Shown here piece after piece: positions 492-14,244 of a DNA stretch of 14,244 nt (positions are counted from its first letter, which is position 1; each line of letters starts with the position of its first letter). The DNA is from a virus (taxonomy: Duplodnaviria > Heunggongvirae > Uroviricota > Caudoviricetes). The notes below the pieces were generated by a model. The model had not been told where the DNA came from, made no database searches, and worked only from the letters and a program-made list of their open reading frames with translations. The stretch lies in IMG/VR virus record IMGVR_UViG_2859777919_000005. One strand, given 5' to 3'. Made by a program: the position numbers and the translations under genes.

Positions 492-534
492 TGAGGTGTA
501 CTGGCAATAGCGGACACTACCATTTGTTCTTTTT

Positions 535-1353
535 TTAAGCAGCCATCTGATGATATTTTTCCCTGAAGGCTGCCGGGGAGATATTCCCCAGACGAGAGTG
601 ACGACGCTGACGATTGTAGAAAATCTCAATGTATTCCCGTATTACTGAGATGGCTTCATCCCGGTTATTAAAACGATAGTGGCTCAGGCTCTCATTTTTC
701 AGCGTTCCCCAGAAGCTTTCCATCGGAGCGTTGTCGTAACAGTTACCTTTACGCGACATTGATGTTTTCAGACCAGACTGCTCCTGTATGACCCGGTAAT
801 CGTATGCGCAGTACTGTGAACCTCGATCAGAGTGGTGGATTAGCCCGGCAGGTGGGCGCTGGCTCCTGAGCGCCATAAACAGGGCTTTACCTGTCAGCTC
901 TTTTGTCATGCGCTCTCCCATGGCGTAGCCGACAATTTCGCACGTATAAACATCTTTGATGCCAGCGAGGTACAACCATCCCTCCTGTGTGGCAACATAC
1001 GTCAGGTCCGCCACCCAGACCTGATTTGGTGCTGTAGGAGCGAACGTCTGGTTCAGCAGATTTGGCGCAACTGGCAGATTGTGGTTCGAGTTCGTAGTCG
1101 CTCTGAACTTGCGTTTCTGCTTACAGCGTAGCCTTAGCTCCTTACGAAGACGTGCCAGTCGGTCACGACCAACGATGATGCCATTCTCTGCCAGCTCCGT
1201 CTGGAGCCGCCGGGTTCCATATGTTTCGCGAGTGCGGATATGTGCCACCTTAATCTCCAGTTTTAGCCGCTCATCACTTTGTTTTCTGTCTGAGGGTTCA
1301 TGCTGTACCCAGTTGTAATAACCGCTCCTGGATACACCAAATACCTGACACAT
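535..1353 (-). CDS. IS600 OrfB (272 aa; DDE integrase-like catalytic domain)
   Basis: ORF with its own ATG; its frame stays open upstream through the A7 run, consistent with OrfAB fusion by -1 frameshifting (established for the IS3 family). This is the only IS600 copy in the window in which that fused frame is unbroken. Confidence 0.8.
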   Translation of the reverse strand: MCQVFGVSRSGYYNWVQHEPSDRKQSDERLKLEIKVAHIRTRETYGTRRLQTELAENGIIVGRDRLARLRKELRLRCKQKRKFRATTNSNHNLPVAPNLLNQTFAPTAPNQVWVADLTYVATQEGWLYLAGIKDVYTCEIVGYAMGERMTKELTGKALFMALRSQRPPAGLIHHSDRGSQYCAYDYRVIQEQSGLKTSMSRKGNCYDNAPMESFWGTLKNESLSHYRFNNRDEAISVIREYIEIFYNRQRRHSRLGNISPAAFREKYHQMAA

Positions 1354-1388
1354 CGCTTCAATGGGAAATTGTTGTCGCCATTGTTCGA

Positions 1389-1691
1389 TTAACGCGTATT
1401 TTTCAGCGACTCCTGTGCAAAATACGCTGTTGCTTTTTTTAATATATCTCGCTCAAGGCGAGCTTCATTTAACGCCTTACGCAGTTGCAGAATTTCAGAT
1501 TCCAGTTCAGCCACCGTGCGGGAACCAGGAGTACCGAGCCCTTTTCTGGCGGCGGTAACCCATTGTCCTAAAGTGCCTTCAGGAAGAGATAATCGGGAAG
1601 CGCCTTCACTGATCGAAAGTTGATTTTCAGGAACCGTTCTGACAGCTTCGGCTTTGAACTCTTTAGAGTAACGTTGGGTTTTTCTGCTCAT
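1389..1691 (-). CDS. IS600 OrfA (100 aa; HTH DNA-binding part of the OrfAB transposase)
   Basis: ORF MSRKTQRYSKEFKAEAVRTV... with the same protein repeated in the other three IS600 copies. An A7 run (complement of 1434-1440) near its 3' end is a candidate -1 programmed frameshift site, and the orfB frame is open across it. Confidence 0.8.
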   Translation of the reverse strand: MSRKTQRYSKEFKAEAVRTVPENQLSISEGASRLSLPEGTLGQWVTAARKGLGTPGSRTVAELESEILQLRKALNEARLERDILKKATAYFAQESLKNTR

Positions 1692-1884
1692 TATTAGCTC
1701 CTTCTGATGCCATTCTATTTCAGGAAGGAGTGTCCGTTAAACTCAGGCTACCTCACTATGCAGCGCGTGCTGGCGTTTTATCAGGGGAAATTTCAGGAGG
1801 CGGTACTGTGAGTAAAATTAGCTATCAGGCTTCAATTACCGCTGGTATTCGCATCAAAGGAGAGGAGCATGGAAATAAAACCAG

Positions 1885-3681: not shown

Positions 3682-4343
3682 CCACTATTACCAAAGAGCG
3701 ACTGCAATGGCTGGCTAACATTTCTGGCCGCGATGATATTGACGATATAGACGGCGGTGAAATTCGTGAACTGGCGCTTATCGCTCTGGCATCACTGGAA
3801 GCAGAGCCTGTAGCGGAATGCATTGTTGAAGATGGGGGCATGTGTATTGACGGGTTCGGTGAGTATGTGGGTCACTCGCTGCCTGATGGAATGCATGAGC
3901 TTTATGCTGCCCCGCGAATGCGACAACCTGATGGATGGAAAGCCGTAGCTGTAGCGTGGAAGGTGACGTTTACTCAAGTTGACCAGGAATCTAATACGTT
4001 CACTGCTATATATTTTGACAAAGCGGAAGTTGAGTGTTGGGTACGACTGCATAAAGCATGTGATTTTCGGGCAGATATAACACCGCTTTACGCAGCGCCG
4101 GCAGTGCCGGTTGCAGTAAACGACGACATGGCTTACGCATTCCATCACGCACTGTCAGATTCATCGCTTGGCTCTGATGAAATCGAAGAAATTAAAACCG
4201 GTTTGCGTGCTGCCTTTGCCAACGTCACTATCCAACCAGAGCCGATAGTGCCGGATGAAATCGGGCCAAACGATAGTAATACGTTTGATTATGTTGATGG
4301 CTGGAACGCCTGCCGCGCTGCCATGCTTAAGGGAGATAAATAA
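3678..4343 (+). CDS. Hypothetical prophage early-region protein (221 aa) with duplicated LYAAP motif
   Basis: Start overlaps the HNH stop (ATGA), with SD AAGGGG upstream. Acidic protein containing two LYAAP-containing segments (MHELYAAPRMRQPDGWKAVAV and ITPLYAAPAVPVAV). No family recognised. Confidence 0.7.
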   Translation: MTTITKERLQWLANISGRDDIDDIDGGEIRELALIALASLEAEPVAECIVEDGGMCIDGFGEYVGHSLPDGMHELYAAPRMRQPDGWKAVAVAWKVTFTQVDQESNTFTAIYFDKAEVECWVRLHKACDFRADITPLYAAPAVPVAVNDDMAYAFHHALSDSSLGSDEIEEIKTGLRAAFANVTIQPEPIVPDEIGPNDSNTFDYVDGWNACRAAMLKGDK

Positions 4344-4824: not shown

Positions 4825-5162
4825 GAAGGAAACAAAACAGAAACAGCAATTGCCGTTACCTGTTGTTACCATGGCAAGTAAACGTATCTCAGGCGAGCGC
4901 ATTGCGCCGTTCTGACGCAGATAAACTAGCCTGGATAGATGGTGCTGGCAATAAAAAATAGCGTTTTCTTATCGGTGTCGGTAAGATTGCTGCGGGTGCT
5001 TGAGGCTGTCTGCCTCGGGTATGTCACTGTAAGGCAGACAGAGAAAAGCCCCAGTTAACATTACGCGTCCTGCAAGACGCTTAACATTAATCTGAGGCCC
5101 AATCTATGTCTCACAAATGTAGGTTAGCCTCTTACGTGCCGAAAGGCAAGGAGAAGCAGGCT

Positions 5163-5318
5163 ATGAAGCAGCAAAAGGCGATGTTAATCGCCCTGATCGT
5201 CATCTGTTTAACCGTCATTGTGACGGCACTGGTAACGAGGAAAGACCTCTGCGAGGTACGAATCCGAATCGGCCAGACGGAGGTCGCTGTTTTCGTAGAC
5301 TACGAATCTAGAGAGTAA
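5163..5318 (+). CDS. hok: Hok/Gef-family type I toxin (51 aa)
   Basis: MKQQKAMLIALIVICLTVIVTALVTRKDLCEVRIRIGQTEVAVFVDYESRE has an N-terminal transmembrane helix and the conserved TRKDLCEV...GQTEVAVF core. It is closest to HokD/RelF and HokC/Gef as I remember them. The ORF-track extension to 5106 is in frame but probably not the start; SD AAGGAGAAG precedes the ATG at 5163. Confidence 0.85.
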   Translation: MKQQKAMLIALIVICLTVIVTALVTRKDLCEVRIRIGQTEVAVFVDYESRE

Positions 5319-6122: not shown

Positions 6123-6283
6123 TGGAGCACCTCAAAAACACGATCATACACTAAATCAGTAAGTTGGCAGCATCACCTTTTGTCTCTATGTTGATATAAC
6201 CGTTTGTACTTATAAACCTTGAGGTAGCCTGAGTTTAACGGACACTCCTTCCTGAAATAGAATGGCATCAGAAGGAGCTAATA

Positions 6284-6586
6284 ATGAGCAGAAAAACCCA
6301 ACGTTACTCTAAAGAGTTCAAAGCCGAAGCTGTCAGAACGGTTCTTGAAAATCAACTTTCGATCAGTGAAGGCGCTTCCCGATTATCTCTTCCTGAAGGC
6401 ACTTTAGGACAATGGGTTACCGCCGCCAGAAAAGGGCTCGGTACTCCTGGTTCCCGCACGGTGGCTGAACTGGAATCTGAAATTCTGCAACTGCGTAAGG
6501 CGTTAAATGAAGCTCGCCTTGAGCGAGATATATTAAAAAAAGCAACAGCGTATTTTGCACAGGAGTCGCTGAAAAATACGCGTTAA
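6284..6586 (+). CDS. IS600 OrfA (100 aa), copy 2
   Basis: Full-length OrfA; differs from copy 1 at one residue (L versus P in RTVLENQ). Confidence 0.75.
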   Translation: MSRKTQRYSKEFKAEAVRTVLENQLSISEGASRLSLPEGTLGQWVTAARKGLGTPGSRTVAELESEILQLRKALNEARLERDILKKATAYFAQESLKNTR

Positions 6587-6623
6587 TCGAACAATGGCGA
6601 CAACAATTTCCCATTGAAGCGAT

Positions 6624-7438
6624 GTGTCAGGTATTTGGTGTATCCAGGGCGGTTATTACAACTGGGTACAGCATGAACCCTCAGACAGAAAACAAAGTGA
6701 TGAGCGGCTAAAACTGGAGATTAAGGTGGCACATATCCGCACTCGCGAAACATATGGAACCCGGCGGCTCCAGACGGAGCTGGCAGAGAATGGCATCATC
6801 GTTGGTCGTGACCGACTGGCACGTCTTCGTAAGGAGCTAAGGCTACGCTGTAAGCAGAAACGCAAGTTCAGAGCGACTACGAACTCGAACCACAATCTGC
6901 CAGTTGCGCCAAATCTGCTGAACCAGACGTTCGCTCCTACAGCACCAAATCAGGTCTGGGTGGCGGACCTGACGTATGTTGCCACACAGGAGGGATGGTT
7001 GTACCTCGCTGGCATCAAAGATGTTTATACGTGCGAAATTGTCGGCTACGCCATGGAGAGCGCATGACAAAAGAGCTGACAGGTAAAGCCCTGTTTATGG
7101 CGCTCAGGAGCCAGCGCCCACCTGCCGGGCTAATCCACCACTCTGATCGAGGTTCACAGTACTGCGCATACGATTACCGGGTCATACAGGAGCAGTCTGG
7201 TCTGAAAACATCAATGTCGCGTAAAGGTAACTGTTACGACAACGCTCCGATGGAAAGCTTCTGGGGAACGCTGAAAAATGAGAGCCTGAGCCACTATCGT
7301 TTTAATAACCGGGATGAAGCCATCTCAGTAATACGGGAATACATTGAGATTTTCTACAATCGTCAGCGTCGTCACTCTCGTCTGGGGAATATCTCCCCGG
7401 CAGCCTTCAGGGAAAAATATCATCAGATGGCTGCTTAA
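6624..7438 (+). pseudogene. IS600 orfB, frameshifted (copy 2)
   Basis: OrfB sequence is split across two overlapping ORFs (6624-7067 and 6995-7438). Confidence 0.8.
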
Positions 7439-7531
7439 AAAAAGAACAAATGGTAGTGTCCGCTATTGCCAGTACACCTCACACTCTATCCAACAAACCA
7501 CCCACAGTTAATCGGAATAAAAGCAGAGTGC

Positions 7532-7663: not shown

Positions 7664-7738
<75 letters not shown>

Positions 7739-7741
7739 ATA

Positions 7742-7817
<76 letters not shown>

Positions 7818-7819
7818 GC

Positions 7820-7896
7820 TGGCCCACCACCGAGGACTCGAACCTCGCACCGTCAACTTAGAAGGTTGATGCTCTATCCGGATGAGCTAGTGGTGG
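7820..7896 (-). tRNA. tRNA-Arg (anticodon UCU), argN-like
   Basis: Reverse complement CCACCACTAGCTCATCCGGATAGAGCATCAACCTTCTAAGTTGACGGTGCGAGGTTCGAGTCCTCGGTGGTGGGCCA; acceptor CCACCAC/GTGGTGG, anticodon stem TCAAC/GTTGA, loop CTTCTAA, T stem CGAGG/CCTCG, encoded CCA. The unusual C1:G72 start makes the exact 5' boundary less certain. Confidence 0.8.
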
Positions 7897-7897
7897 T

Positions 7898-7974
7898 TGG
7901 TGGCCCTTGCTGGACTTGAACCAGCGACCTGGCGATTATGAGTCGCTCGCTCTGACCAACTGAGCTAAAGGGCC
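7898..7974 (-). tRNA. tRNA with CAU anticodon, ileX/ileZ-like (Ile2, lysidine-dependent) or Met
   Basis: Reverse complement GGCCCTTTAGCTCAGTTGGTCAGAGCGAGCGACTCATAATCGCCAGGTCGCTGGTTCAAGTCCAGCAAGGGCCACCA; anticodon loop CTCATAA. Overall close to E. coli ileX as I recall it, hence probably an AUA-reading tRNA-Ile2. Confidence 0.8.
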
Positions 7975-9893: not shown

Positions 9894-9936
9894 TGAGGTG
9901 TACTGGCAATAGCGGACACTACCATTTGTTCTTTTT

Positions 9937-10749
9937 TTAAGCAGCCATCTGATGATATTTTTCCCTGAAGGCTGCCGGGGAGATATTCCCCAGACGAGAG
10001 TGACGACGCTGACGATTGTAGAAAATCTCAATGTATTCCCGTATTACTGAGATGGCTTCATCCCGGTTATTAAAACGATAGTGGCTCAGGCTCTCATTTT
10101 TCAGCGTTCCCCAGAAGCTTTCCATCGGAGCGTTGTCGTAACAGTTACCTTTACGCGACATTGATGTTTTCAGACCAGACTGCTCCTGTATGACCCGGTA
10201 ATCGTATGCGCAGTACTGTGAACCTCGATCAGAGTGGTGGATTAGCCCGGCAGGTGGGCGCTGGCTCCTGAGCGCCATAAACAGGGCTTTACCTGTCAGC
10301 TCTTTTGTCATGCGCTCTCCCATGGCGTAGCCGACAATTTCGCACGTATAAACATCTTTGATGCCAGCGAGGTACAACCATCCCTCCTGTGTGGCAACAT
10401 ACGTCAGGTCCGCCACCCAGACCTGATTTGGTGCTGTAGGAGCGAACGTCTGGTTCAGCAGATTTGGCGCAACTGGCAGATTGTGGTTCGAGTTCGTAGT
10501 CGCTCTGAACTTGCGTTTCTGCTTACAGCGTAGCCTTAGCTCCTTACGAAGACGTGCCAGTCGGTCACGACCAACGATGATGCCATTCTCTGCCAGCTCC
10601 GTCTGGAGCCGCCGGGTTCCATATGTTTCGCGAGTGCGGATATGTGCCACCTTAATCTCCAGTTTTAGCCGCTCATCACTTTGTTTTCTGTCTGAGGGTT
10701 CATGCTGTACCCAGTTGTAATAACCGCTCATACACCAAATACCTGACAC
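9937..10749 (-). CDS. IS600 orfB, copy 3 (270 aa, GTG start, altered N-terminus; probably non-functional without orfA)
   Basis: ORF identical to copy 1 OrfB after residue 10; the N-terminus is shifted by the 4-bp deletion. Confidence 0.5.
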   Translation of the reverse strand: MSGIWCMSGYYNWVQHEPSDRKQSDERLKLEIKVAHIRTRETYGTRRLQTELAENGIIVGRDRLARLRKELRLRCKQKRKFRATTNSNHNLPVAPNLLNQTFAPTAPNQVWVADLTYVATQEGWLYLAGIKDVYTCEIVGYAMGERMTKELTGKALFMALRSQRPPAGLIHHSDRGSQYCAYDYRVIQEQSGLKTSMSRKGNCYDNAPMESFWGTLKNESLSHYRFNNRDEAISVIREYIEIFYNRQRRHSRLGNISPAAFREKYHQMAA

Positions 10750-10786
10750 ATCGCTTCAATGGGAAATTGTTGTCGCCATTGTTCGA

Positions 10787-11066
10787 TTAACGCGTATTTT
10801 TCAGCGACTCCTGTGCAAAATACGCTGTTGCTTTTTTTAATATATCTCGCTCAAGGCGAGCTTCATTTAACGCCTTACGCAGTTGCAGAATTTCAGATTC
10901 CAGTTCAGCCACCGTGCGGGAACCAGGAGTACCGAGCCCTTTTCTGGCGGCGGTAACCCATTGTCCTAAAGTGCCTTCAGGAAGAGATAATCGGGAAGCG
11001 CCTTCACTGATCGAAAGTTGATTTTCAAGAACCGTTCTGACAGCTTCAGCTTTGAACTCTTTAGAG
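10787..11066 (-). pseudogene. IS600 orfA, 5'-truncated (copy 3)
   Basis: OrfA residues from SKEFKAEAV onward are present; the first 8 codons and the left inverted repeat are missing. Confidence 0.8.
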
Positions 11067-11739
11067 GTATCGATACCGGCTGACCACACAGCGCTTCGGG
11101 AACGCTGTAACGATTACCACCAACCTCGATATAGCTGTCCCAGGACACATGGCGGATATCGAAGTAACTGGTATCGAAGTCTGTATCCGGTAACGGCTGC
11201 AGATGTTCCTGCTCCAGCGCGAAGCGCTGTTCCGGCGTTTCTTTGAACTGGCGAAGCTCCCGTTTGTCAGCCACATCGGCTATCCATTGCTCCAGTTGTT
11301 GATTGACATGAGTGAAGCTGTCGAACCTGCGGTACCGGACGAAGAAGTTCTCCTTGAGGTATTTCACCATCCGCTCAACCTTACCTTTTGTTCTGGCCCT
11401 GCGTGGACGGCATGCCCGTGGCAGGAAGTTATAGTGGTCAGCCAGCAACAGGAATCCGGAGTTGAACACGACTTTCCCGTTGTTATTCTTCAGCACCGCA
11501 GCCTTCTGGTTATCAACCAGCACCGTTTTCACACAATCACCGAAGTAGCGGAAGGCGCGAACCAGTGATTCGTAGGTATGCTCAGCATCCTGTTTTGGTG
11601 CGGCGAAGACATGGAAGCTGCGGGAGAACCCCAGCGTATTAACCGCAAAGTTAACTTTGCACCGTTGCCCGGCAACCTCCACCTCAACTTCGCCCCAGTC
11701 ATGCTGGAGCTGGTATCCAGGCTGAGTTTCGAAGCGAAC
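11067..11739 (-). pseudogene. IS21-family transposase istA, internal fragment
   Basis: Minus-strand frame encodes ...FHVFAAPKQDAEHTYESLVRAFRYFGDCVKTVLVDNQKAAVLKNNNGKVVFNSGFLLLADHYNFLPRACRPRRARTKGKVERMVKYLKENFF..., which I recognise as the catalytic region of IstA-type transposases. Cut at both ends by IS600 copies; no start codon and no inverted repeats of its own. Confidence 0.65.
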
Positions 11740-11803
11740 TGAGGTAGCCTGAGTTTAACGGACACTCCTTCCTGAAATAGAATGGCATCAGAAGGAGCTA
11801 ATA

Positions 11804-12136
11804 ATGAGCAGAAAAACCCAACGTTACTCTAAAGAGTTCAAAGCCGAAGCTGTCAGAACGGTTCTTGAAAATCAACTTTCGATCAGTGAAGGCGCTTCCC
11901 GATTATCTCTTCCTGAAGGCACTTTAGGACAATGGGTTACCGCCGCCAGAAAAGGGCTCGGTACTCCTGGTTCCCGCACGGTGGCTGAACTGGAATCTGA
12001 AATTCTGCAACTGCGTAAGGCGTTAAATGAAGCTCGCCTTGAGCGAGATATATTAAAAAAAGCAACAGCGTATTTTGCACAGGAGTCGCTGAAAATACGC
12101 GTTAATCGAACAATGGCGACAACAATTTCCCATTGA
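11804..12136 (+). pseudogene. IS600 orfA with frameshifted 3' end (copy 4)
   Basis: 110-aa ORF: OrfA residues 1-96, then a frameshifted tail IRVNRTMATTISH. Confidence 0.65.
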
Positions 12137-12142
12137 AGCGAT

Positions 12143-12957
12143 GTGTCAGGTATTTGGTGTATCCGGGGCGGTTATTACAACTGGGTACAGCATGAACCCT
12201 CAGACAGAAAACAAAGTGATGAGCGGCTAAAACTGGAGATTAAGGTGGCACATATCCGCACTCGCGAAACATATGGAACCCGGCGGCTCCAGACGGAGCT
12301 GGCAGAGAATGGCATCATCGTTGGTCGTGACCGACTGGCACGTCTTCGTAAGGAGCTAAGGCTACGCTGTAAGCAGAAACGCAAGTTCAGAGCGACTACG
12401 AACTCGAACCACAATCTGCCAGTTGCGCCAAATCTGCTGAACCAGACGTTCGCTCCTACAGCACCAAATCAGGTCTGGGTGGCGGACCTGACGTATGTTG
12501 CCACACAGGAGGGATGGTTGTACCTCGCTGGCATCAAAGATGTTTATACGTGCGAAATTGTCGGCTACGCCATGGGAGAGCGCATGACAAAGAGCTGACA
12601 GGTAAAGCCCTGTTTATGGCGCTCAGGAGCCAGCGCCCACCTGCCGGGCTAATCCACCACTCTGATCGAGGTTCACAGTACTGCGCATACGATTACCGGG
12701 TCATACAGGAGCAGTCTGGTCTGAAAACATCAATGTCGCGTAAAGGTAACTGTTACGACAACGCTCCGATGGAAAGCTTCTGGGGAACGCTGAAAAATGA
12801 GAGCCTGAGCCACTATCGTTTTAATAACCGGGATGAAGCCATCTCAGTAATACGGGAATACATTGAGATTTTCTACAATCGTCAGCGTCGTCACTCTCGT
12901 CTGGGGAATATCTCCCCGGCAGCCTTCAGGGAAAAATATCATCAGATGGCTGCTTAA
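12143..12957 (+). pseudogene. IS600 orfB, frameshifted (copy 4)
   Basis: OrfB sequence is split across two overlapping ORFs (12143-12598 and 12514-12957). Confidence 0.8.
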
Positions 12958-13000
12958 AAAAAGAACAAATGGTAGTGTCCGCTATTGCCAGTACACCTCA

Positions 13001-14244
13001 GCCGTCTGGCGATACCCGGCGCATTCGGCTTTGGGTGTGCTTTTCTGCCTGAAGATGTTATCCGTTTTGACACTAAGAGTGATTTCCTGGCCTGGGTAAG
13101 GAATGCGCTGCCAGGTGAATATTCCGTTGCTGGCCCCTACGACATCATCATACCCGACACACGGTTTGAAGGGGTGCTCAGCATCCGGTGGACTGATGCA
13201 CGCCCTGAGACAACAGAACCGAGGTACAGAGCCAAATCCCTTACTTTTTACGGCATTAACGGCCCCATTTATCACACCCGCTACTGCTACTGGCCCATAT
13301 CCAGACTGACTGGCTGGGTGAAAATAAATATAACCACAGAAGATATTATTTACAGAATCGTGGCGAGCTCTGTCTGCAACAGATGGGGAGACCCTGACAT
13401 TGGCGGGCTGATTATTGCTGCGTACCAGGGAGAAGCTGACGGTGATAAAGTCATCAGACTTGTCAGGGGGCAGTCATACAGAGGCTCACGACTGGGACCG
13501 GTGGGGATTTCAGTGCCCAGTACTCCCACCGGAACGTATATAGCATCCCCACAATTTTCATTACGGGATGTTCAGAGCATTCATTACCGGGGTCATATAG
13601 CGCCCTGTCCGGGGTGCCGGATGCTCATGTCTCTGGCGCAATGCCCGGGCTTTTTATTCGCACATCGTGAGGAATGCACCGTGGAAATTAAAAAAATCAT
13701 TAATCCCCGTTATACCGAAAGTGGCGCAGTAGACTGTGACGTTTTTTTTGACGACAGGGACCAGGCAGTCCCCTACACAGCCACCGCTGATGATGTCGCA
13801 CCGACGGGTCAGCGAATCTGGCAGGAACTGCAAAGTGGCAAATGGGGTGAGATAGCCCCATTCACTGTGACACCAGAAATGCTGGAAGCGGCCAGAGAGG
13901 CCAGACGTCAGGGAATTGAAGCATGGCGCACAGAACAGGAGGCGAAGCCGTTCACGTTTGAATGGAACGGTCGTATCTGGAATGCTGGCCCCAACTCACT
14001 GGGCCGCCTTTATCCGGTGGTAATGGCTGCGAAATCCGACATTGTACGGGACGTGATGACGTGGGGTGATGCCGATAATCAGCAGGTGAAACAGTCGATG
14101 CCGGAACTGGAAGAACTGGCGGCAGCAATGGCTCAGGCACAGGTTGAGCGCAATGACGAGATTTATCGCCGTCAGCGGGAGCTGAAGGAAGAGCTGAATA
14201 GTCTGAAGGATTTGAATTCGGTTAGGAATTTTATCGTGGAATAA
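13001..14244 (+). pseudogene. C-terminal 414 codons of an unidentified protein, N-terminally truncated by IS600 copy 4
   Basis: Long open frame from the IS600 junction to TAA at 14242-14244. The N-terminal part is Cys/Gly-rich and looks beta-rich (...YDIIIPDTRFEGVLSIRWTDARPETTEPRYRAKSLTFYGINGPIYHTRYCYWPISRLTGWVKINITTEDIIYRIV...); the last 60 aa are a charged, coiled-coil-like tail (...MPELEELAAAMAQAQVERNDEIYRRQRELKEELNSLKDL...). No family recognised; a phage tail-fibre distal domain is one guess. Confidence 0.6.

Follow-up and report, generated by a model that had tools for sequence, protein, structure and literature searches.

The 3'-terminal part of the analyzed window (14,244 nucleotides (nt) of the IMG/VR virus record IMGVR_UViG_2859777919_000005, Caudoviricetes), positions 13001–14244, with high probability carries two genes from the right end of a decayed phiP27-like prophage, a side tail-fibre remnant and a DUF4376 gene, fused into a single reading frame through one missing T. 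Comparisons with related loci demonstrated the identities of both genes, their boundaries and the frameshift that joins them. The segment most likely represents the prophage arm of the sit island of Shigella sonnei. The locus is already known as the phage end of the sit island of Shigella and enteroinvasive E. coli (EIEC), and hundreds of genomes carry routine annotations of both genes. The island was first described, as "PAI sit", in S. flexneri (PMC7545054). In the full genomes sitDCBA lies downstream of the window end, which supplies the context that had been noted as missing when these positions were read from the sequence alone.

The longest open reading frame (ORF) of the window runs uninterrupted on the plus strand from 12985 to 14244 and comprises 419 codons plus TAA, or 414 codons when counted from 13003. 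The sequence-only reading had correctly described it as the largest coding segment of the window, in phase from the end of an insertion sequence (IS) and closed exactly at the window end: the frame is open from TTG 12985 inside IS600, and its TAA (14242–14244) forms the final three bases. It opens past TAG 12973–12975, the only start candidate being TTG 12985 within the IS600 end, and no in-frame ATG precedes 13621. Residues 1–5 (12985–12999) are derived from the IS600 end, residues 6–191 (13000–13557) from the fibre remnant in its authentic frame, residues 192–232 (13558–13680) from the fibre 3' end and a 10-nt spacer read out of frame (SLRDVQSIHYRGHIAPCPGCRMLMSLAQCPGFLFAHREECT), and residues 233–419 (13681–14241) constitute the complete DUF4376 protein, all on the plus strand. 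The 419-codon ORF is two genes, not a single protein, and the proposed single 414-codon protein fragment resolves into the fibre remnant at 13001–13670 and a separate gene at 13681–14244, joined by a 1-nt deletion. The ORF had also been described as one that could not be placed in any family, a novelty expected to vanish with a confident match to a characterised one; it matched PHROG 2636 (E 4e-76), PHROG 1141 (E 8e-86) and Pfam DUF4376 (52 bits, cut-off 25).

The first gene (13001–13670, plus strand) is a side tail-fibre pseudogene remnant corresponding to codons ~200–422 of a 422-amino-acid (aa) fibre, with 97% DNA identity to the copy in EIEC CFSAN029787. Its authentic frame covers 13003–13557 and is thereafter shifted by the missing T. 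When the profile of PHROG 2636 was compared with the chimeric ORF (E 3.8e-76), residues 6–204 aligned with profile positions 339–543 of 568. The PF08400 N-terminal attachment domain was not present in the window ORF, whereas the intact EIEC orthologue has it at residues 1–131 (E 5e-68). The suggestion that IS600 had removed the N-terminus was borne out, fibre codons 1–199 of 422 being gone, and the intact gene that genomes lacking the IS600 insertion were expected to hold was recovered as the 422-aa fibre of EIEC CFSAN029787. The 186 residues that follow the IS share 84% identity with a full-length fibre of 421 aa. In an exhaustive search covering 1.84 billion representatives, this distal module was found in 83 clusters (at 50% identity), near the C-terminus of full-length fibres of ~300 to ~1,300 aa, and it belongs to a small modular family of distal fibre domains. 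A receptor-binding or tail-fibre distal domain, one of the options considered earlier, is right for these 186 residues, which form the distal part of a lambdoid-type side tail fibre (PHROG 2636).

The frame through the conserved ~37 C-terminal fibre residues (…HSLPG.Y.ALSG…LF[IV]R..) is not intact in the window, and the remnant is a pseudogene relic of the PHROG 2636 family, no longer a functional member of it. Three substitutions distinguish 13001–13680 from the EIEC copy, two Arg-to-Cys and one Cys/Ser; all are non-synonymous, which, the small numbers notwithstanding, fits a fibre gene no longer under selection. An AlphaFold2 model of the fibre distal region, built on a 9-sequence alignment, was unusable (mean predicted local distance difference test score (pLDDT) 35.4). 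A sequence search of the PDB with the intact fibre matched only the N-terminal attachment domain (9e7m, 7kjk), the part absent from the window.

The frame breaks at a run of four T residues (13555–13558, plus strand). In the pairwise alignment with the EIEC copy a single gap separates the TTTT of the window from TTTTT. The T5 run was found in EIEC (L001) and in 6/6 of the S. sonnei loci with the identical IS600/fibre junction (L003–L008), and three further Shigella loci have TATTT, equal in length to T5; the 5-nt state is thus present in all 10 other Shigella/EIEC loci aligned at this site. In four S. sonnei loci the T gap is the sole difference from window positions 13001–14244 (one gap in 1245 columns). 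None of the other genomes compared shares the frameshift. Phase variation or programmed frameshifting at the T-run was also considered and ruled out, all 10 other loci having 5 nt and the gene being devoid of a start. The two genes are normally read in different frames, and the ribosome-binding site of the chaperone gene overlaps the TGA that ends the fibre. The 1-nt deletion shifts the fibre frame, and the fibre is therefore read into the frame of the DUF4376 gene via 41 codons. The absence of one T from the T5 run in this way produces the 414/419-codon ORF.

Four independent lines of comparison indicate that the T5 frame is the authentic fibre frame. The intact fibre aligns with L56 of phiP27 through the final residue (…HSLPGSYCALSGVPDAHVSGAMPGLFIRTS vs. 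…TLPGTYVALSGGPDVKFYNRGLVSLFVRIA), whereas the window ORF, the frame of which includes …SPQFSLRDVQSIHYRGH…, loses similarity to L56 at residue ~196. The PHROG 2636 match reaches profile position 567 of 568 in the intact fibre and only 543 in the window ORF. Two further proteins, P0133 (55% identical) and the partial P0121 (100% identical), run on in the T5 frame. Finally, in the search of the 1.84 billion representatives, the majority of the full-length proteins that match the remnant extend ~30–45 residues beyond the end of the match. Restoration of the T in silico gave …SPQFFITGCSEHSLPGSYSALSGVPDAHVSGAMPGLFIRTS, followed by a stop at 13668–13670; in the window, the true last 37 fibre codons (FITGCSEHSLPGSYSALSGVPDAHVSGAMPGLFIRTS) and this stop, TGA, sit in the other frame.

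Most of the reported Cys-richness proved to be artefactual. Of the eight Cys residues of the 419-codon ORF, four are located in the 41 out-of-frame codons (9.8% Cys), and the fibre part contains three, of which two are Arg-to-Cys changes in the pseudogene common to the S. sonnei copies compared. The 41 codons (13558–13680) are without biological meaning. The case is a caution that one homopolymer error joining a pseudogene to its neighbour can yield a long, seemingly family-less ORF beside an IS, and that oddities of composition such as apparent Cys-richness can arise from out-of-frame translation.

The second gene (13681–14244, plus strand) is complete, with 187 codons plus TAA, and belongs to PF14301 (DUF4376) and PHROG 1141. 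The PF14301 match to the 187-aa protein scored 53.5 bits against a cut-off of 25 over residues 70–174 (window ~13888–14202), and the PHROG 1141 match had an E-value of 3e-86. We found 1770 homologues, most of them 187–188 aa in length. The initiation region (13669–13683, plus strand) consists of GAGGAA at 13669–13674, which overlaps the TGA stop of the fibre, then 6 nt of spacer and GTG at 13681–13683. What had been taken for the charged helical tail of the same protein is a separate gene, DUF4376, which has a ribosome-binding site (GAGGA) and a start codon (GTG) of its own. PGAP-style annotations start the gene at ATG 13621, giving a 207-aa product, and this exact product was present in 189 blocks of the assembly collection, on chromosomes of ~4.8 Mb, the closest clusters being named Shigella sonnei. 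Sequence comparisons favour the GTG at 13681 over ATG 13621 as the probable start: window residue 233, encoded by this GTG, pairs with residue 2 of L57 of phiP27 and corresponds to position 4 of the PHROG 1141 profile. The TGAGGA…(A/G)TG arrangement, combining the fibre stop with the Shine–Dalgarno sequence, is kept in Shigella, EIEC and phiP27. The coupling of the two genes (fibre stop over GAGGA, GTG 10 nt further on) is alike in EIEC, other Shigella, phiP27 and phage Av-05.

The AlphaFold2 model of the DUF4376 protein (pLDDT 91.9) has three strands at the N-terminus, a helical body, two beta-hairpins and, at the C-terminus, a long helix. Foldseek comparison of this model with BFVD gave 36 hits at E<=1e-3 from very diverse phages, many of them named DUF4376, with probability 1.0, while the comparison with the PDB gave no hit at E<=1e-3. 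Sequence searches of the PDB with the DUF4376 protein or with a 37-sequence DUF4376 profile gave no significant match, and a scan of NCBIfam assigned no family to the DUF4376 protein, to the intact fibre or to either of two neighbouring genes. The DUF4376 gene has a short patch, at window ~14053–14135, that is strongly divergent from the EIEC copy between near-identical flanks, and in this patch the window protein is nearer to L57 of phiP27 (LYPVVMAAKSD…TWGDAD). The patch is a mosaic recombination tract.

The same pair of genes was recognized in other genomes. Ten complete E. coli genomes match 13001–14244 at 94–97% identity, and in each of them the match falls under two genes, annotated as "prophage tail fiber N-terminal domain-containing protein" and "DUF4376 domain-containing protein". 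In EIEC CFSAN029787 the fibre gene (WP_046881251, 422 codons) is followed in a different frame by the DUF4376 gene (WP_046881248). This locus has 97% DNA identity to the window over 13001–14244 and shares the downstream sitDCBA, uspF and ompN; upstream it carries baseplate genes, a first fibre gene and a classical tail-fibre assembly gene. Unlike in the window, both genes are intact in EIEC, IS600 is absent, the run is T5 and the DUF4376 sequence differs in the ~14053–14135 patch. The right end of the Shiga toxin 2e (Stx2e) phage phiP27 consists of L54/L55, L56 (fibre, 490 aa, NP_543108), L57 (188 aa, NP_543109) and attR. Here, too, a first fibre/Tfa pair precedes the two genes, their order is unchanged, and the layout of stop, ribosome-binding site and start is the same. 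L57 is 78% identical to the DUF4376 protein of the window over all 187 residues. L56 and the intact fibre are conserved at the N-terminus and in the C-terminal ~40 residues; the shaft of the phiP27 fibre is 68 residues longer and its distal domain only ~26% identical, and the phiP27 gene is intact whereas the window copy is 5'-truncated and frameshifted.

The position of the DUF4376 gene directly after a fibre gene recalls the gp26/gp27 and gp8/gp9 pairs of the Alteromonas phages V22 and A5, in which a protein of ~190–240 aa with a C-terminal DUF4376 domain is encoded immediately downstream of the fibre. The V22 fibre gp26 binds cells only when gp27 is co-expressed, and gp27 is absent from the mature complex (PMC7289586). 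A5 gp9 and V22 gp27 were described as DUF4376 tail-fibre chaperones that form trimeric "caps" on the fibre tip, their N-terminal strands pairing with the fibre head (PMC10579305). The H-fibre of Campylobacter CJIE1 likewise depends on a downstream DUF4376 gene (PMC7882524). The model of the window protein agrees with the published description of the A5 and V22 chaperones, the predicted architecture in each case combining beta-strands at the N-terminus with a helical body and beta-hairpins. The position of its gene, the coupling to the fibre gene and this architecture make the window DUF4376 protein the presumed equivalent chaperone for an L56-type fibre. In a working phage it would act as an intermolecular chaperone that trimerises, docks on the nascent fibre at the C-terminal tip and helps the fibre to fold into a receptor-binding trimer, without being kept in the mature fibre. 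In the window, its client fibre would have been lost and the gene orphaned.

Chaperones of the Caudo_TAP family PF02413 (Tfa of lambda, U of Mu, G of P2) share the genomic position and the presumed job, and one of them follows the first fibre gene of this prophage. They belong to a different family: the DUF4376 protein had no PF02413 hit at E<=0.01, and hhalign comparison with the neighbouring Tfa detected no profile similarity (probability 0.2%). ORF-191 from the P-Eib prophages of E. coli ECOR-9 is ~40% identical over the full length and also occupies the prophage cargo end; it precedes eib genes, not sit, and is found at the 5' ends of eib-region fragments. In the S. dysenteriae loci L012–L014 (4779–8630) the DUF4376 gene is present in three copies, each placed before an ipaH-type effector gene (LRR_TTSS + NEL) and not before sit; an intact fibre gene (423 aa) was called ahead of DUF4376 in L012 only. 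Its neighbours, ipaH in S. dysenteriae and eib in ECOR-9, thus identify the DUF4376 gene as a marker of the cargo end in prophages of this type. The window adds one more DUF4376 gene at the tail-fibre chaperone position, at the cargo end of phiP27-like prophages.

Relative to the other S. sonnei loci, seven 1-nt deletions are private to the window, against no private insertion of any length. Five are contractions of homopolymers (5775, 7054, 12091, 12588 and 13554, the last being the T-run), and two are located at CCAGG, the Dcm methylation motif (6648 and 12164). Homopolymers and Dcm sites are the classic sites of systematic error in nanopore base-calling. The missing T is likely to be such a long-read base-calling error and not a real mutation. 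A strain-specific slippage mutation, neutral in a dead pseudogene and joining the two frames in phase by coincidence, seems rather unlikely. Homopolymers are natural slippage sites, and private indels occur here in other S. sonnei assemblies as well; against slippage stand seven 1-base deletions, all in one direction, within ~10 kb of an otherwise near-identical clonal species, their placement at homopolymers and Dcm CCAGG motifs, and the fact that four of the seven fall in the near-identical IS600 copies 2 and 4 and break transposase frames (those at 12091, 12164 and 12588 in copy 4). The deletion pattern looks like unpolished long-read error, and other short or odd ORFs of the window deserve distrust. 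Several observations weigh against the explanation offered here, of a base-calling error in a decayed fibre gene followed by the gene of its chaperone. The remnant is unselected, all three substitutions relative to EIEC in 13001–13680 being non-synonymous, and a real slippage mutation there would be neutral. L003 has 2 nt more at 13242 and L005 1 nt less at 13466, which may be errors or real drift. Little weight attaches to the lack of a record of the 419-aa product, since in a T4 genome, too, gene callers might report the nested product of 207 aa. What the window protein shares with V22 gp27 is the Pfam domain and the architecture, not close homology, and we infer the role of the window DUF4376 protein and of its phiP27 orthologue by analogy with the literature and from synteny. 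The fusion is biologically meaningless whether the missing T is artefact or mutation, because the remnant is devoid of its first 199 codons, the PF08400 domain, an in-frame ATG before 13621 and a promoter-like site.

That the ORF might encode a real polypeptide, a fibre tip fused to its chaperone and expressed by read-through from IS600, is highly improbable. The frame is indeed open from within the IS600 end, and some other phages do have fibres that end in an intramolecular chaperone domain (PMC10579305). The comparative data contradict this reading: the fusion is absent from the 10 other aligned Shigella/EIEC loci and from phiP27, its linker is translated in the wrong frame, with loss of the 37 conserved residues that end the fibre, and the attachment domain, start codon and promoter are gone, the scan of 12900–14244 having detected 0 promoter-like (sigma-70-like) sites. 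An exact look-up in the gene collection found no record of the 419-aa product. A toxin, an effector or another novel domain unrelated to phage tails, also proposed earlier, has a negligible probability. Nothing was found in its favour, its sole basis having been the impression given by composition; the Pfam, PHROG, PDB-sequence and Foldseek results lent it no support, the PDB sequence searches having given no significant match of any kind, toxins included. Both halves of the ORF strongly match tail-fibre families, a homology that refutes such a domain, and in EIEC and phiP27 the genes are syntenic with baseplate, fibre and assembly genes. It is also very unlikely that the orphan DUF4376 gene has been kept intact in S. 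sonnei, after the destruction of its fibre, for another use and that the T4 allele is a genuine fusion-producing variant. If this were true, the orphan could act on the fibre of a different prophage or tailocin resident in the cell, or be expressed by IS600 read-through beside sit.

The preferred reading, of a dead fibre gene beside a separate DUF4376 gene, places the loss of the fibre 5' part at IS600. Homology to prophage DNA begins exactly at 13001, one base past the fourth IS600 copy (11740–13000, plus strand, IS3 family), whose right end, …CACCTCA, adjoins the fibre remnant. To the left of the remnant lie this IS600 and then an IS21 istA fragment, not the missing 5' part of the fibre gene. 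IS600 together with IS-mediated rearrangement removed the ~199 first fibre codons with the PF08400 domain, the promoter and the start, leaving a dead pseudogene. Self-BLAST located three more copies of IS600, at 492–1755 (minus strand), 6220–7481 (plus strand) and, shortened to 1177 bp, 9894–11066 (minus strand), as well as two copies of IS1. Copy 4 is 99.6–99.7% identical to the others. The copies are 99.6–99.8% identical to one another and to annotated IS600, with a length of ~1264 bp and ends TG…CA, and E. coli records label the element "IS3-like element IS600 family transposase". A 673-bp fragment of IS21 istA (99.9% identical to IS21) separates the shortened copy 3 from copy 4. Nested IS insertions within 9894–11739 have replaced the phage structural-gene region. 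The six S. sonnei chromosomes with the identical IS600/fibre junction (L003–L008) differ in their content beyond the junction IS pair: some carry lambda-like tail genes (gpI, gpJ, Lom) and others the Q-region genes of the window. This suggests IS600-mediated inversions or rearrangements between S. sonnei strains.

Two minor scans of the 3' part were made. Over 12900–14244, two terminator-like sites were found against 1.2 expected, which is uninformative. The minus-strand ORFs of 13001–14244 do not exceed 97 aa, and the equivalent EIEC stretch has no annotation on that strand; no further search was made with them.

Elsewhere the window consists of a lambdoid prophage remnant riddled with IS elements. 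It contains the early-region genes for an HNH endonuclease, DUF551, DUF4014 and hok/sok, and a Q-like antiterminator module with DUF1367, YbcO (DUF1364) and a DUF1133 gene weakly matching Phage_antitermQ. The S. sonnei locus L005 lacks a 9-bp direct duplication, GCCGGCAGT, that the window has at 4097–4105, in frame within a prophage ORF of 221 codons. The hok/sok type I toxin–antitoxin system (4994–5318) is located between the IS1 copies within the prophage remnant and consists of sok RNA at 4994–5168 (plus strand, Rfam RF01794, 118 bits) and a hok-like ORF of 70 codons at 5106–5318. Four tRNA genes (Gly-tcc, Thr-tgt, Arg-tct and Met-cat) are encoded on the minus strand at 7664–7974, beside the DUF1133/DUF1364 (YbcO)/DUF1367 late-regulation genes.
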